Part shown: piece after piece, positions 3,263 to 54,423 of the stretch
Numbering within the stretch: position 1 is the first letter of the stretch
Layout of the letters: every line of letters starts with the position of its first letter
Source: an uncultured Acidobacteriota bacterium
GTDB taxonomy: Bacteria > Acidobacteriota > Thermoanaerobaculia > UBA5066 > Gp7-AA6
DNA length: 64,000 nucleotides
Assembly (NCBI GenBank): GCA_963764715.1
Contig: CAVXTP010000001.1
Span: 11,504 to 75,503, forward strand
Reading direction: 5' to 3'
Translations under genes and position numbers: made by a program
Notes under the pieces: model-generated
Told to the model about the DNA's origin: nothing
The model's input: the letters and a program-made list of their open reading frames with translations, nothing else
Database searches by the model: none

Positions 3263-3898
3263 CTACCCTTCCCGCCGCGCGATGGCGACGCCGTCGCGCA
3301 GGGGAACGATCGCGGTCTCGAACTCCTGCAGGGCGAAGAGGCGCCGGTTGAACTGCCGGATGCCTTCCGTCGCCGCGTCCTGGACCTTCGGGTCGACGAC
3401 CTTGCCCGACCAGAGCACGTTGTCGGCGACGAGATACCCGCCCCGGCGCACGCGCGGCGCCGCCGCCTGGAGGGCCTTCGGGTAGCCGTCCTTGTCGACG
3501 TCGATGAAGATGACGTCGTAATACCCCGTCGTCGCCTCGAGCGACGTGACGGCGTCGCCCACGCGAATCGCGACGCGGTCGAGGTAGCCGAGGCGCTCGA
3601 GGTACCCCTTCGCCCGCTCGGCGTTATCGGCGTTCCCGTCGGTGTAGGTGACCTGGCCGCCCTTGCCGACCGCGCGCGCGAAGAAGGCCGTGGAGTAGCC
3701 GATGGCGCTTCCGAGCTCGAAGACACGCTGCGCGCCGATCGAGCGCGCCAGGATCTCCAGCAGCGTCGCGACGGCGGGCCCCACGATCGGCACGTCGTGC
3801 TTCGCGGCGTAGGCCTCCATCTCCGCGATCACGGGGTCGCGCGGCGGCAGCAGGTCGAGTACGTAGCGGTCGAGCTCGGGGGCGATCAATCCGGCCAT
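3263..3898 (-). CDS. class I SAM-dependent O-methyltransferase (caffeoyl-CoA OMT-like)
   Basis: ELGSAIGYS SAM-binding motif and DVDK motif. 211 aa. Confidence 0.7.
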   Translation of the reverse strand: MAGLIAPELDRYVLDLLPPRDPVIAEMEAYAAKHDVPIVGPAVATLLEILARSIGAQRVFELGSAIGYSTAFFARAVGKGGQVTYTDGNADNAERAKGYLERLGYLDRVAIRVGDAVTSLEATTGYYDVIFIDVDKDGYPKALQAAAPRVRRGGYLVADNVLWSGKVVDPKVQDAATEGIRQFNRRLFALQEFETAIVPLRDGVAIARREG

Positions 3899-3963
3899 GG
3901 GCTGAATCTTATAAGGATCGCAGACATCCGGCAGGCCGGCCCGAACCCTATAATCCCGCGCGC

Positions 3964-6563: not shown

Positions 6564-7861
6564 AGTGGCGCCTGCGCCCCGAGGCGCATCCCGAGCTCGT
6601 CAAGCCGGCAGGGCCCAACCTCGGCGTCGCCCCGCCCCGCGGGGCCGAGGCGCCGCGCCGCGGGATGTTCGCCTCGCTCGCTCACACCCAGTACCGCCGC
6701 TACTGGACCGGCCTCTTCCTCTCGAACGTCGGGACGTGGATGCAGTCGGTGGCCCAGGGCTGGCTCGTCCTGCGCCTCTCGAACTCGGCGTTCCTGCTCG
6801 GCCTCGTCGGGTTCGTCGGCTCGATCCCGACGCTGCTGCTCGCGCCGCTCGCCGGCGTGGCCGCGGACCGCCTCGACCGGAGACGGCTCCTCCTCGCCAC
6901 CCAGGCGACCCAGATGGCCTGCGCGTTCACGCTCGCCGGCGCGGTCTACGGCGGCTTCGTCTCGGTCGGGCTCGTGGCCGGGGTGGCGATCGTCAACGGC
7001 GTGGCGAACGCGCTGACCACGCCGGCGCACCAGACGCTCTTCCTCGATCTCGTGGGGCCCGAGGACCTGACCAACGCCATCGCGCTCAACTCGATGCAGT
7101 TCAACCTCTCGCGCATCGTCGGCCCGGCGCTCGCCGGCCTCGCCATCGGCGCCCTCGGCGAGGCCGCGTGTTTCGCCCTCAACGGGATCTCGTTCGTCGC
7201 GATCCTCGTGCCCCTCGCGATCCTTCCCGCCATGCCCCCGTCCCGCCGCCGGGCCCGCAGCGCCTGGATCGACCTGCGCGCGGGCCTGCGCTTCGCCCGG
7301 CGGCATCCGCTGATCCCGCAGCTCCTCGTCCTGATCGCCTCGCTCGCCATCTTCGGGACGCCCGCGGTCACGATGGCCCCGCTCTTCGCGAAGAACCTGC
7401 TCGGCGTGGGGCCCGAGGGCCTCGGCGGCATGCTCTCGGCGGTCGGCGTCGGCGCCGTCGCGACCGCCCTGCTCATGGCTTCGGGCGGAGATTTCGGGCA
7501 CAAGGGCGCCGGCGTCCTCGCCGCCTCGACCGGGTTTGCGCTCTCGCTCGCGGGCTTCGCGCTGTCCCGCAGCTACGCGCTCTCGCTCGCCTGCCTGGTC
7601 CTGCTCGGCGGCTCGATGACCTCGACGGCCTCGCTCGTCAACACGCTCCTCCAGAAGAGCGCTCCCAGCCGCATGCGGGGCCGCGTGATCTCGCTCTACG
7701 CCCTGGCCTGGCTGGGTCTCGTCCCGCTCGGCAACCTTCAGGCCGGGATCGTGGCGGAGCGCTTCGGCGCGGCCTCGACGCTCCTCGTCGGCGCCGCCGG
7801 CATCACGCTGACTCTCGTGCTGCTCCGCCTCGTTCGCCCCGTGCCCCTCGAAGCGGCGTAG
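6560..7861 (+). CDS. MFS transporter
   Basis: 12-TM profile. ATGA overlap with the upstream gene. An alternative start lies at 6665. Confidence 0.65.
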   Translation: MKWRLRPEAHPELVKPAGPNLGVAPPRGAEAPRRGMFASLAHTQYRRYWTGLFLSNVGTWMQSVAQGWLVLRLSNSAFLLGLVGFVGSIPTLLLAPLAGVAADRLDRRRLLLATQATQMACAFTLAGAVYGGFVSVGLVAGVAIVNGVANALTTPAHQTLFLDLVGPEDLTNAIALNSMQFNLSRIVGPALAGLAIGALGEAACFALNGISFVAILVPLAILPAMPPSRRRARSAWIDLRAGLRFARRHPLIPQLLVLIASLAIFGTPAVTMAPLFAKNLLGVGPEGLGGMLSAVGVGAVATALLMASGGDFGHKGAGVLAASTGFALSLAGFALSRSYALSLACLVLLGGSMTSTASLVNTLLQKSAPSRMRGRVISLYALAWLGLVPLGNLQAGIVAERFGAASTLLVGAAGITLTLVLLRLVRPVPLEAA

Positions 7862-7865
7862 CTCC

Positions 7866-7903
7866 CTGCCTCCTGCCTCCTGCCTCCTGCCTCCTGCCTC
7901 CTG
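7866..7903. repeat. heptamer tandem repeat (CCTGCCT/GCCTCCT) x5
   Basis: Directly visible in the sequence. Lies in a convergent intergenic region. Confidence 0.85.
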
Positions 7904-22584: not shown

Positions 22585-22681
22585 CGGGGGTATCTTAATC
22601 GGTCGCTCGACGCGACCGGACGGGAGCGGAGAGCGGAATCGGCAAGATCGGGACCATCAAGAGTGTCCGGCGGCCGAAGAT

Positions 22682-22782
22682 GAGCTCAGGTTGACCTGCG
22701 GCGCACGGTGGCGCCTCCTGATCGCTGCTTCCTTCCGGACCTGACGAGGTTCGGAGACTTCCGTCGCACAGGGCCCGAACTC
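22682..22782 (-). ncRNA. ffs: signal recognition particle RNA (4.5S / ffs)
   Basis: Minus strand carries GTCAGGTCCGGAAGGAAGCAGC (the conserved SRP domain IV motif), flanked by pairing terminal segments. Sits at the usual position upstream of dnaX. Confidence 0.65.
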
Positions 22783-24000: not shown

Positions 24001-24090
<90 letters not shown>

Positions 24091-24150
24091 GGGGCGGGGA
24101 ATCCTACAACACCAGGCGACAGTCGCATGCGAGTAAACGCCGCGCGCCGC

Positions 24151-24232
24151 GCGGCGTTGCCTACTGCCGGGGGTCTGCCTCTGGTGGTCGGCTCCAAGCG
24201 TGCTCCTTAAGCCACTCGGACACCTCTCCGGG
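24151..24232 (-). repeat. mosaic repeat: duplicated 5' half of tRNA-Ser (acceptor through anticodon loop) fused to core CCGACCACCAGAGGCAGACCCCCGGCAGTAGG
   Basis: 24195-24232 repeats the tRNA 5' 38 nt. The adjacent core also occurs twice downstream of tRNA-Ser(CGA) at 53.7-54.0 kb. Confidence 0.7.
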
Positions 24233-24334
24233 GCGCGGAATCCTAACAGGGTCACCGACCATAAACGAAGGGTCCGAGAGCCTGCGCCGAGTGATGTCCG
24301 GACGTTTTAGGGTTAGGGGGGTTACACTCAACGC

Positions 24335-48138: not shown

Positions 48139-48167
48139 GGGCGGACGCTATCAGCAGTCAGGCGCCC

Positions 48168-48190
48168 TGCCTCCTGCCTCCTGCCTCCTG
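48168..48190. repeat. heptamer tandem repeat (CTGCCTC/GCCTCCT) x3; on the minus strand it reads (GGAGGCA)n upstream of the permease start
   Basis: Same unit as the x5 repeat at 7866-7903. Confidence 0.8.
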
Positions 48191-48198
48191 CGGGCGGG

Positions 48199-52096: not shown

Positions 52097-52173
52097 GCGC
52101 CCATAGCTCAATTGGATAGAGCGTCTGACTACGGATCAGGAGGTTGGGGGTTCGACTCCCTCTGGGCGCACCA
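52097..52173 (+). tRNA. tRNA-Arg (anticodon ACG)
   Basis: Manual cloverleaf with acceptor GCGCCCA/TGGGCGC. Anticodon loop CTACGGA. Confidence 0.85.
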
Positions 52174-52199
52174 CTTCCGACTGGGGTAGCCTCCCCGCG

Positions 52200-52658
52200 G
52201 TGTCTTTCACGGACCAGGACCGCCGTTTCATGGCCGAGGCCCTCGCCTTCGCGCGCATCGCCTATGCCGAGCAGGAGGTCCCCATCGGGGCGGTCGTCGT
52301 TCGGGACGGACGGATGATCGGCCGGGGGCGCAACCGCCGGGAACGGCTCGCCGACCCCACCCACCACGCCGAGATCGAGGCCATCCGGGAGGCCGCCCGC
52401 GAGGTCGGTCACTGGCGCCTCGAGGACTGCACCCTCTATGCCACGGTGGAGCCCTGCGCGATGTGCGCCGGCGCCGCGGTCAACGCCCGGATCCGACGGA
52501 TCGTCTTCGGCTGCACGGACCCCAAGGCCGGCTATTGCGGCACCCTCGGAAACATCCCGGGGGACGCGCGGCTGAACCACCGGCCCCAGGTCGAAGGGGG
52601 CCTTCTGGCCGACGAGTCGGCCGAGATGCTCCGCCAGTTCTTCCAGGCGAAACGCTGA
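52200..52658 (+). CDS. tadA: tRNA adenosine(34) deaminase
   Basis: HAE and PCxMC zinc motifs. Adjacent to tRNA-Arg(ACG), its substrate. Confidence 0.8.
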   Translation: MSFTDQDRRFMAEALAFARIAYAEQEVPIGAVVVRDGRMIGRGRNRRERLADPTHHAEIEAIREAAREVGHWRLEDCTLYATVEPCAMCAGAAVNARIRRIVFGCTDPKAGYCGTLGNIPGDARLNHRPQVEGGLLADESAEMLRQFFQAKR

Positions 52659-53144: not shown

Positions 53145-53588
53145 TCAGGCTTCTCGAAAACTGCGAAACGCCGACGGCGGCAGGCGGCCCATGAGCGAAA
53201 GGCAGCCCGGGAAGAGCTCCCGCGGCAGCCCGCCCGGCACCCGGACCATCGACCGAGCGCGGCGGCGGAACCCCGACGGCGTCTCCCCGACGCGGCGCGT
53301 GAAGACATCACTGAAGCTGCCGAGGCTCGAGAAGCCGACCTCCATGCAGACCTCGGTGACGGAAAGCTCGCCTTTTGCCAGGAGCCGCCGGGCGCGGTCG
53401 AGCCGCGCCTCGATCCGGTACTGGTGCGGCGTCGCGCCGAAGACCGCATCGAATCGCCGGATGAAGTGGAATGGCGAGATACCCGCAAGCCTCGCCGCTT
53501 CCTCGACCGAAAGCGGCCGTTCCGTGACGCTCCGGAGCGCCCGGCGAGCACGGCAGAGTCCGGAAAAGAGGCTCGGCCCGACCAGCAT
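53145..53588 (-). CDS. AraC-family transcriptional regulator (HTH only)
   Basis: Dual helix-turn-helix AraC signature (LSVEEAARLAGISPFHF, VTEVCMEVGFSSLGSFS). Confidence 0.6.
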   Translation of the reverse strand: MLVGPSLFSGLCRARRALRSVTERPLSVEEAARLAGISPFHFIRRFDAVFGATPHQYRIEARLDRARRLLAKGELSVTEVCMEVGFSSLGSFSDVFTRRVGETPSGFRRRARSMVRVPGGLPRELFPGCLSLMGRLPPSAFRSFREA

Positions 53589-53654
53589 TCGAGCCCCAGT
53601 CTACGACTGACAGCGCCCCAAAAATCCGCTAGGATGCGCCCCTTCCACCCGCGC

Positions 53655-53744
53655 GGAGAGGTGCTGGAGTGGTTGATCAGGCCGGTCTCGAAAACCGGTA
53701 GGCCCGAAAGGGTCTCGTGGGTTCAAATCCCACCCTCTCCGCCA
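53655..53744 (+). tRNA. tRNA-Ser (anticodon CGA)
   Basis: Manual cloverleaf: acceptor GGAGAGG/CCTCTCC, anticodon loop CTCGAAA, long variable arm, CCA encoded. Confidence 0.85.
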
Positions 53745-54084
53745 CTACTACTGCCTCGCGACAGTCGTGGGTTCACCCGACCACCAGCGGCAGACCCCCG
53801 GCAGTAGGGAGCCGTCCACCAGAGATCGACCCCCGATCTTAGGCAACGCTGGCCGAAGGCCAGCGGTAACCCACGCTGCGCGAAGCGCAGCGGTAAATCC
53901 CACCCTCTCCGCCACTAATGTTGCCTCGAGACAGTCGTGGGTTCGCCCGACCACCAGAGGCAGACCCCCGGCAGCAGGGAGCCGTCCACCAGAGATCGAC
54001 CCCCGATCTTAGGCAACGCTGGCCGAAGGCCAGCGGTAACCCACGCTGCGCGAAGCGCAGCGGTAAATCCCACCCTCTCCGCCA
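53745..54084 (+). repeat. two tandem ~170 nt units, each a tRNA-Ser 3' fragment (T-arm to CCA) whose T-loop is interrupted by a ~135 nt insert beginning CCGACCACCAG(C/A)GGCAGACCCCCGGCAG
   Basis: Units at 53745-53913 and 53914-54084. Each ends with AAATCCCACCCTCTCCGCCA, identical to the 3' end of tRNA-Ser. Confidence 0.75.
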
Positions 54085-54120
54085 TTATTGCTCCTCGAGA
54101 GAGTCGTGGGGTCGGCGCCC

Positions 54121-54423
54121 TCACCGGATCGGATCGATCGGCGTGCGCCTGGGCTCCTTGCCGAAGCGGATCCGCGACTTCTCGATCATCTTGCGGATCT
54201 CGACATCGCGATCCTTTGGCGGGGCGTTGGTCACCCACCCATGGACCAGTCGCTCGGCCGCCGCGGCGACCTCGTCCACCGCGCGTTGGAACAACGCCTC
54301 ATTGGCGCGCGAGGGCTTGTTGGCCCCGCTCAGCTTGCGGACGAACTGCAGCGACGAGGCCCGGATCTCGGCCGCGGTGGCCGGGGGCGCGAAGTTGGCC
54401 AGGGTACGGATGTTGCGGCACAT
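54121..54423 (-). CDS. DUF2277-family small protein
   Basis: MCRNIRTL...FxPPAT N-terminal signature. Confidence 0.45.
   Translation of the reverse strand: MCRNIRTLANFAPPATAAEIRASSLQFVRKLSGANKPSRANEALFQRAVDEVAAAAERLVHGWVTNAPPKDRDVEIRKMIEKSRIRFGKEPRRTPIDPIR

Follow-up and report, generated by a model that had tools for sequence, protein, structure and literature searches.

Behind the gene for tRNA-Ser(CGA), the 64-kb window (that is, the whole stretch of DNA analysed here) carries two tandem copies of a tRNA 3' end whose T-loop holds a small structured element, and this element in turn holds a second member of its own family. The family is a previously undescribed structured repeat, of which we found ~175 copies overall, confined to genomes of one group of soil bacteria (Acidobacteriota/Thermoanaerobaculia) or environmental metagenome contigs. 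We consider it probable that the element is a non-autonomous, strand-specific repeat resembling REPs and MITEs, with a preference for the arm loops of tRNAs, and that it is kept by selection. The T-loop is among the most conserved sequences in biology, and bacterial tRNA genes are known targets of large integrating elements and, rarely, of group I introns. Our literature searches returned no description of an equivalent element, i.e., a non-coding element of ~60 nt that occurs in all three kinds of tRNA loop and, as far as tRNAs are concerned, only in spare fragments.

A nested element behind tRNA-Ser(CGA)

The intact tRNA-Ser(CGA) gene (53655-53744, plus strand), called by both ARAGORN and Rfam, is preceded on the same strand by a promoter-like site, CTGACA-17-TAGGAT, at 53607-53635. 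Tandem Repeats Finder delimits an array of period 170 at 53725-54114, with 2.3 copies and 94% matches. Its two full units, 53745-53914 and 53915-54084, have no ORF and can be told apart by 7 nucleotides, none of which lies beyond the first 61 nt. The three programs agree with an earlier reading made from the sequence only, which had described a tRNA-Ser(CGA) followed by two tandem 170-nt units. Each unit is laid out as a 22-nt trailer, GTGGGTTC(A/G), an insert and (A)AATCCCACCCTCTCCGCCA. When the insert is deleted in silico, the T-arm GTGGGTTCAAATCCCAC is regained with a junction ambiguity of 1 nt within an A run, so the proposed position of the insert in the T-loop was right. Its proposed length and composition were not: instead of 135 nt with two GC hairpins, the insert of unit 1 measures 119-120 nt (53776-53895) and holds three hairpins.

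All parts of unit 1 lie on the plus strand. The trailer and a copy of the T-stem 5' strand with the T-loop 5' half, GTGGGTTCA, occupy 53745-53775 and are followed at 53776-53810 by the 5' part of an outer element (leader CCCGA, 28-mer, G, A). A complete inner element of 62 nt (53811-53872; 71.6 bits) comes next; its 28-mer is a variant, CCACCAGAGATCGACCCCCGATCTTAGG, and it has a hairpin and a GTAACCC tail of its own. The outer element then resumes at 53873-53895 with its 3' part, the hairpin CGCTGCGC-GAA-GCGCAGCG and GTA, and the unit closes at 53896-53914 with a copy of the tRNA 3' end (T-loop 3' half, T-stem 3' strand, acceptor 3' strand and CCA). Unit 2, also on the plus strand (53915-54084), repeats this layout with trailer and T-stem 5' strand at 53915-53945, outer 5' part at 53946-53980, inner element at 53981-54042, outer 3' part at 54043-54065 and tRNA 3' fragment at 54066-54084. 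The array ends on the same strand with a partial third trailer and a degenerate T-stem 5' strand, GTCGTGGGGTC (54085-54113), beyond which lies a convergent DUF2277 gene (54121-54423, minus strand). Because the tRNA has a promoter-like site and no terminator-like site occurs from there to the array end, before the convergent gene, the array is probably co-transcribed with tRNA-Ser(CGA).

Comparison with related loci resolves the insert into its two parts. In L062, the ortholog of the window locus (the downstream gene is shared), the tRNA-Ser(CGA) fragment has just one element, of 58 nt, in its T-loop, and L054 has a one-module element in a fragment that lies inverted and upstream of the tRNA. 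Neither locus has the inner element; the two window units differ from them by an extra 62-nt block between TAGGGA and ACGC, spanning N to the tail GTAACCC. Since this block is itself a complete element, the window insert consists of one element inside another and is not the single unit first described.

The second site of the window, on the minus strand, lies at tRNA-Ser(GGA) (24001-24089), an intact gene according to ARAGORN and Rfam. Upstream of this gene, beyond its promoter and a spacer (24090-24130, minus strand), there is a single complete element (24131-24192, minus strand; 89.5 bits with our covariance model), preceded by a duplicated promoter with the -10 box TAGGAT and by positions 1-37 of the tRNA (24193-24247, minus strand). 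This 5' fragment stops within the anticodon loop (TTGGA) and is fused there to the element. The fusion of the core to the anticodon loop of a duplicated tRNA-Ser(GGA) 5' half, recognized earlier from the letters, is thus confirmed at 24131-24247. The 28-nt core has three sites in the window (53777 and 53947, and 24164-24191 on the minus strand) where 100 shuffles give an expectation of 0, and the covariance model finds copies in the 64 kb only at the two tRNA-Ser genes. Pfam searches of the neighbor genes of both sites identified a TadA-like deaminase, the DUF2277 protein and ABC-transporter/HlyD components, and no integrase or transposase.

Distribution, fold and conservation of the family

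A degenerate core pattern, scanned against one representative genome per species, returned 83 loci; ~60 came from Acidobacteriota/Thermoanaerobaculia MAGs, often several per genome, and the others were scattered chance matches. A covariance model built from the element alignment (R1) found 87 copies in the genome loci, all of them in Acidobacteriota/Thermoanaerobaculia, none in 22 chance loci, and 87 further copies in an independent metagenome sample. The exact-pattern scan gives at least 5 to 10 copies per MAG. There was no match in viral contigs and hence no link to phages, and clustering of ORFs within 3 kb of the element, at 61 and then at 120 loci, disclosed no recurring transposase, integrase or reverse transcriptase.

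In parsed copies, the element of ~58 to 62 nt consists of a 5-nt leader N-CCG-R, an almost invariant 28-mer, CCACCAGMGGCAGACCCCCGGCAGTAGG, with the general form CCACCAG(M)GGCAGACCCCCGGCAGTAGG, a nucleotide N' complementary to N of the leader, a GC-rich hairpin starting directly after N', and a tail of the GTAAC(CC) type, AAYCC-like. Two helices are adjacent to each other. The first, of 3 bp (N-CC/GG-N'), closes the 28-mer, and its N:N' pair is G:C in 40 copies, C:G in 15 and T:A in 10, with 3 exceptions. The second is the hairpin, with the consensus CGCCGnnn / 3- to 7-nt loop / nnnCGGCG, which comprises 8 to 10 bp, shows compensatory changes in 7 of 8 pairs and can be extended outward by a purine-purine mismatch and one further pair. 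RNAalifold independently yields both helices.

Covariation supports this fold in two samples. Among 40 distinct copies of the genome set, 98.7% of the cells are paired versus 85.2% in shuffled alignments, and the covariation score of 0.362 (0.115 when shuffled) is reached in 0 of 500 shuffles, slid registers giving at most 0.073. The independent metagenome set gave 97.0% versus 85.8% for pairing and 0.271 versus 0.086 for covariation, together with a compensatory change in the second pair of the closing helix as well, seen in L122. Mutual information flags exactly the helix partners and nothing besides. One-sided changes on the plus strand are of the G.U type in 12 cases versus A.C in 4, which indicates that the fold belongs to the tRNA-sense strand; for this reason, the earlier suggestion of an uncharacterised structured RNA may also be true. 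Two further structures were considered and rejected, namely, a longer inner helix in the 5' half, pairing CCGRCCACC with GGCAGTAGG, for which the fifth base of the leader shows no covariation with the base it would have to pair with, and a hammerhead-like three-way junction, whose strands differ on inspection from the catalytic core. Rfam searches of the window and seven loci, at gathering and at relaxed thresholds (to E<=10), returned only tRNAs and the SRP RNA, and no class of the element matched a covariance model of Rfam 15, be it of a ribozyme, a small RNA or an intron.

The element is maintained and not merely decaying. When the Ser(GGA) and Ser(TGA) sites are compared among species-level orthologs, identity is 96 to 97% for the tRNA and 92 to 96% for the leader with the 28-mer, against 66 to 88% for the hairpin, which remains fully paired, and only 52 to 66% for the adjoining spacer. 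Hairpin sequences also vary among the copies of one genome, with pairing kept, so that the copies are unlikely to be homogenized by wholesale gene conversion. Of the two 28-mers in a nested pair, the inner one varies far more than the outer. Inert selfish DNA would not be expected to keep the 28-mer so strongly conserved in old orthologous loci, and this argues for a function at the level of the host or of an RNA; it suggests that the tRNA-sense strand is the functional one, as RNA or as single-stranded DNA. Neither this tRNA-like conservation nor the covarying helices can be explained by recombination scars alone, another candidate of the sequence-only reading.

Host sites and insertion

About 37 of the 90 copies from the genome loci and the window (~40%) adjoin tRNA-derived sequence. 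Genes for tRNAs with a 300-nt margin make up, as a rough estimate, <1% of such genomes. The tRNA-linked copies occupy the D-, anticodon- or T-loops of truncated tRNA copies, derived from Ser(TGA, GGA, CGA, GCT), Ala(GGC, CGC), Met(CAT) and Arg(TCT), i.e., from at least eight tRNAs, and the precise junctions of the window recur in many genomes and in all three loops. Copies upstream of a tRNA gene come after a duplicated promoter and tRNA positions 1-21 (D-loop) or 1-37 (anticodon loop), and downstream copies come before the last 16 to 20 nt of the tRNA. The strand is that of the nearest tRNA in 33 of 36 cases. Arrays like that of the window occur elsewhere, with 3 units after tRNA-Ser(TGA) in L122 and 5 after tRNA-Arg(TCT) in L120, and all tRNA contexts recur in the metagenome sample. 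Every tRNA host found is a truncated or redundant copy beside an intact gene, and the intact gene is never interrupted. The most complete host is an almost full-length pseudo-tRNA-Ser(GGA) in L009, adjacent to the intact gene, with one element in its anticodon loop and a degenerate one in its T-loop.

More than half of the copies lie away from tRNAs, in REP-like palindromes (of the types GTAGGGGCGG...CCGCCCCTAC, GTCATCCYGAGCG...GATCCC and GGGTGAGGGG) or just past the 3' ends of genes. Many are antisense to the neighbor gene or in such palindromes without an obvious promoter. Copies tend to avoid sites upstream of co-oriented genes: the next gene downstream converges on the element 20 times and has the same orientation 7 times. 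The idea that copies without tRNA fragments would make this a generic REP element is thus half borne out, the tRNA-linked share being the other side. Among the earlier candidates, a miniature element targeting tRNA loops is the one favored by the evidence, with its eight tRNAs, sharp junctions and empty and filled units side by side (see below), although more than half of the copies lie elsewhere.

At non-redundant junctions, positions -3 to -1 read Y-G-A, and conservation after the hairpin extends to +7. With Y-G-A before and the conserved tail after, the flanks resemble a T-loop cut in two (TTCGA | AATCC), also away from tRNAs. The flanks are complementary to each other only weakly beyond the control and in a subset of copies (mean of -10.4 versus -9.3 kcal/mol for mismatched flanks, with 29 of 2,000 permutations reaching the observed value); we therefore replaced a rule of insertion always inside a hairpin loop by a short (Y)GA^A target. 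Targeting of GTTC/CTTG as by IS91-like elements was also discarded, since these tetranucleotides precede the element only where a tRNA loop provides them and not at non-tRNA sites.

The element is an insertion into tRNA fragments that were present beforehand, as follows from empty and filled neighboring units and from nested copies. In L052 and L051, units of ~200 nt stand in tandem after tRNA-Ala, each ending in a T-arm and acceptor 3' fragment; the neighboring units are near-identical, and the T-arm of unit 1 is intact (GACGGTTCGATCCCGTT...) while the T-loop of unit 2 holds the element. Nested copies are further found in L015, L041, L078, L107, L121 and L149. Neither kind of comparison shows a target-site duplication; the junctions are ambiguous by at most 1 nt (an A).

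The tRNA pieces are local redundant copies and not cargo of the element; the T-stem of the L024 fragment, for instance, matches that genome's own tRNA. Their sources are tRNA-linked repeats, tandem gene duplicates and att-type fragments of islands. In L045, a tRNA-Met 3' fragment beginning within the anticodon loop forms the end of an islet that encodes an MNT/HEPN toxin-antitoxin pair; the T-arm of this att-type fragment is empty, and a unit of trailer, element and fragment repeats after it. The element and a tRNA 3' fragment occur again 1.5 to 4 kb downstream of the tRNA in L051, L080 and L045, with accessory genes between, and the distal copy of L080 has a hybrid T-arm, foreign in type on its 5' strand and local on its 3' strand. 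The tRNA loci of element-bearing genomes are hotspots for islands, which supply redundant tRNA fragments and also keep alive the reading of the element as a recombinase site, considered below. The frequency of partial tRNA duplicates beside the element is accounted for only indirectly, by survivorship and by the att fragments of islands. Gene cassettes bounded by elements were considered and rejected: at most loci, what separates clustered copies is ordinary DNA, genic or intergenic, and islets occur at only three tRNA loci.

Model, alternative explanations and known systems

The comparisons show that the element inserts after (Y)GA without target duplication, with a preference for D-, anticodon- and T-loops in the tRNA-sense orientation, and that it can nest and be amplified in tandem. 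On this we base a model. By analogy with GTAG-tagged REPs and their RAYTs, it may move as folded single-stranded DNA through an enzyme acting in trans. Copies are seen only in redundant tRNA pieces, in REP-like palindromes and at gene 3' ends; hits in functional tRNA genes would damage the host, and we infer that their absence reflects counter-selection. The array of the window probably arose in four steps: (i) the final ~30 nt of tRNA-Ser(CGA), comprising the T-arm, the acceptor 3' strand and CCA, were present a second time 22 nt behind the gene as a tRNA-linked repeat, (ii) a 58-nt member of the family entered the T-loop of this spare copy, (iii) a 62-nt member entered the first element at the GA^A junction between its helices, and (iv) the resulting 170-nt unit was duplicated in tandem, unequal crossing-over being the simplest route. 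Against the model stand the lack of a recurring enzyme within 3 kb of the element in 120 loci and the apparently low copy number in our sample (at least 5 to 10 per genome). If correct, it bears on redundant tRNA fragments as safe insertion sites and on why a supposedly selfish repeat matches the neighboring tRNA in conservation, and the element offers a case for how a small repeat recognizes its target. It also explains the odd "tRNA pseudogene arrays" in Acidobacteriota MAGs, which the R1 covariance model can annotate.

The closest known kinds are REP- or MITE-like repeats for behavior, the tyrT/rtT repeats for the layout of arrays and the att fragments of islands for the hosts; the element differs from each in a defining feature. 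We know of no strong preference for tRNA arm loops described for REPs. Like these abundant imperfect palindromes of 20 to 40 nt, the element has a short GC-rich palindrome in which the stem sequence varies and pairing is kept, with GTAG(G) just 5' of the hairpin foot. Its copies are extragenic, mostly downstream of genes or between convergent ORFs, and strand-asymmetric, and they also land in other REP-like palindromes. GTAG-tagged REPs carry the tag beside a variable palindrome, lie downstream of genes and are cleaved in single-stranded form by RAYTs, and REPs (BIMEs, REPINs) are thought to be mobilised by these HUH transposases (PMC3733652). In our element, GTAGG-N' ends at the hairpin foot with the T conserved in 78%; however, GTAG is embedded in the 28-mer, where it overlaps the 3' strand of the closing helix. 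What sets the element apart from REPs is an extra 5' half, ~33 nt long and almost invariant, which has its own covarying closing helix; its copy number is apparently low for a typical REP family, and, unlike in REPtrons, no RAYT or other Y1 transposase lies within 3 kb of any copy in 120 loci.

MITE-type repeats (ERIC, Correia/NEMIS, RPE) share with the element that they are small, non-coding, dispersed, structured, and found in nested and tandem copies; such small repeats are often transcribed. However, neither end of the element (NCCGRCCACC... and ...CGGCGGTAACCC) is the inverted repeat of the other, it makes no target-site duplication of fixed length, we found no parent insertion sequence, and its target is the loop of a tRNA-like arm. 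Without terminal inverted repeats and target duplication, it is not a classical MITE. IS1397 and IS621 are insertion sequences that target REP hairpins. ISPpu9 does so as well (PMC8450116), and the element resembles this group in its structure- or sequence-specific insertion, including into palindromes. The comparison with IS200/IS605-derived palindrome-associated elements, which have subterminal hairpins at both ends and insert strand-specifically 3' of a short fixed target without duplication, gives a mixed picture: our element is strand-specific, makes no duplication and prefers a (Y)GA target, but its two helices are dissimilar and no TnpA gene is nearby; recognition guided as in that family was rejected, as mutual information shows no covariation between flank and interior. 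Introns of tRNA genes (group I introns of anticodon loops in bacteria and, in archaea, those at non-canonical positions, D- and T-loops among them) also sit exactly in tRNA loops on the sense strand. The hosts of our element, in contrast, are truncated or redundant, there is no ribozyme match, and 58 to 62 nt is far too small for group I.

A further possibility, which we hold tentatively, goes beyond a REP/MITE-like repeat. The family could represent a new class of strand-specific, structure-defined elements that home to tRNA-like arm loops and are under selection, either as a small RNA module using tRNA promoters or transcripts or as a folded single-strand recombination site, similar in logic to an integron attC, that marks or disables tRNA-derived att sites at hotspots for islands. 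If so, tRNA fragments would serve as dedicated landing pads across a whole bacterial class.

It is less likely that the element is simply a host-maintained structured small RNA, no longer mobile, made from tRNA promoters or co-transcribed behind tRNAs. The tRNA fragments would then provide promoters or signals for processing or stability, tandem units would be multicopy small-RNA genes in the manner of rtT, and base pairing with G-rich targets could involve the C-rich stretches CCACC and ACCCCC, which are exposed. Such a small RNA would agree with the tRNA-like conservation of the 28-mer in orthologs whose spacers diverge, with hairpins that vary within a genome and stay paired, and with compensatory and G.U-type changes specific to the tRNA-sense strand. 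The absence of a terminator-like site from the tRNA to the array, the duplicated promoters with a -10 box of upstream units, the arrays of 3 to 5 units at several tRNAs and the avoidance of sites upstream of co-oriented genes point the same way. There is also a documented precedent in the tyrT operon of E. coli, where tandem units of ~170 to 180 nt lie directly downstream of the tRNA gene and one encodes the small RNA rtT. Each of these units reportedly contains the tRNA 3' end, and the window units are likewise tandem, behind a tRNA gene, with a tRNA 3' end and probably co-transcribed. Nevertheless, they have no likeness to rtT in sequence or structure (the RtT family of Rfam is unmatched in the window and the other loci searched), and their body, unlike that of the tyrT repeats, consists of a dispersed element with other copies remote from any tRNA or in D- and anticodon-loops. 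Empty and filled units and nested copies are the behavior of an insertion, many copies are antisense or in REP-like palindromes without an obvious promoter, and Rfam gave no match. A small-RNA role would be compatible with the REP/MITE-like reading if the element is a domesticated mobile repeat.

We find it distinctly improbable that the element is a site for an integrase or recombinase, either part of the att site of islands in tRNA loops or a folded site like the attC of integrons, with the tRNA fragments as attL/attR-type duplications and the short units as islands without their former cargo. Integrases that target tRNA genes classically cross over in the anticodon or T-loop. As at the att sites of islands and phages, direct repeats of a tRNA 3' or 5' part lie beside the intact gene, the breakpoints fall in loops (the T-loop for 3' fragments, the D- or anticodon loop for 5' fragments), and true islets with such repeats exist at element loci. 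The status of tRNA loci as integration hotspots, the L045 islet, the distal element and fragment with accessory genes in L051, L080 and L045 and the hybrid T-arm of L080 would all fit, and a conserved fold with variable stem sequence resembles the logic of attC. However, there is no integrase in 120 loci, including the islets L045, L051 and L080 that do carry cargo, and no match in viral contigs. The element lies inside the loop where strand exchange would be expected, with no duplicated overlap of 6 to 8 bp, most units are without cargo, and fragments are both empty and filled, the clear att-type fragment of L045 having an empty T-arm. Moreover, one nearly invariant 28-mer occurs in the D-, anticodon- and T-loops of eight tRNAs and at non-tRNA sites, and it nests in itself, which is at odds with att arms specific to an integrase.

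Plain local duplication and decay, with an arbitrary spacer and an intragenomic copy or coincidence at tRNA-Ser(GGA), is extremely improbable and is refuted by the recurrence of the core outside the array: unit 2 certainly arose from unit 1 by tandem duplication (7 differences), but the core occurs ~175 times in unrelated contexts of many genomes, where 0 are expected, and its helices covary.

Possible recombination at tRNA fragments

Tandem tRNA-linked units of ~200 nt lie 3' of tRNA-Ala and tRNA-Met genes in four of the loci from other genomes returned by the degenerate element-core scan (L052, 4494-4900; L051, 2694-3260; L045, 451-700; and L021, 5908-6130), and each unit combines a direct tRNA 3' fragment with the T-arm region of the tRNA in inverted orientation. 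One such inverted copy, gcgacggttggatcgaaccgtcgacctcc, is antisense to tRNA-Ala. If present in one co-transcript with the tRNA, the inverted T-arm copy would pair with it.

Another locus from the scan, L080, carries two copies of the element, whose flanks do not agree. While the proximal copy (3869-3941) has both flanks of the ACGGG/CCCGT type, unlike the local tRNA, the T-arm around the distal copy (7559-7631) is a hybrid, whose left flank is of the ACGGG type and whose right flank, CCTGGTCAGCTCCACCA, agrees with the tRNA-Ala of that locus. This mismatch between the two copies suggests that these tRNA fragments were involved in recombination or transfer.

The tRNA-Ser(CGA) site of the window retains, 5' of the gene (53555-53600), tRNA positions 42-53 and spacer as a decayed remnant (ccgg...ggcccgacc). 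Its counterpart in L062, the locus orthologous to this site, and in L013 comes after an element that sits in a duplicated tRNA 5' half, at the anticodon loop; the upstream element seems to have been lost in the window lineage.

Cargo between repeated tRNA fragments

In L045, an islet of lower GC (0.598; positions 700-2029) encodes an MNT-type nucleotidyltransferase and a HEPN protein, both assigned from reading translations; its end is formed by a tRNA-Met 3' fragment of the att type, which starts within the anticodon loop. No integrase was found in the 8-kb L045 locus. Comparable cargo lies between repeated tRNA fragments at L051 (an XRE-type HTH protein and a membrane protein) and at L080 (unannotated ORFs together with a gene resembling an OmpR-type response regulator).

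Element copies in other repeats and at gene 3' ends

Two further REP-like repeat families, both abundant in these genomes, also host the element: the GTAGGGGCGGGGC...GCCCCGCCCCTAC palindromes (L055, L017, L018, L039, and others) and the GTCATCCYGAGCG(N)AGCGAGGGATCCC units (L001, L003, L027, and others), the latter forming a hairpin with tandem G.A mismatches. Several other copies lie directly past the 3' ends of genes for large, paralogous proteins with repeat domains, which terminate in ...MVKTFGL (L019, 5150-5330; also L031, L056, L026, and L046). A ~24-nt stretch of the gene's end, duplicated in direct orientation, flanks these copies. The resulting order, duplicate - element - spacer - duplicate, is the layout shared with the tRNA gene sites.

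Additional features of the window

Immediately 3' of tRNA-Arg(ACG), whose anticodon is edited by TadA, stands a gene (52200-52658) for a TadA-like tRNA adenosine deaminase; this pairing (52097-52658 in the window) is kept in L013, L024, L054, and L062. About 1.2 kb separates the tRNA-Ser(GGA) site from the bacterial small SRP RNA (22681-22780, minus strand; 68 bits). The heptamer CCTGCCT forms two perfect tandem arrays far apart in the window, at 7865-7903 (5.6 copies) and 48166-48191 (3.7 copies).
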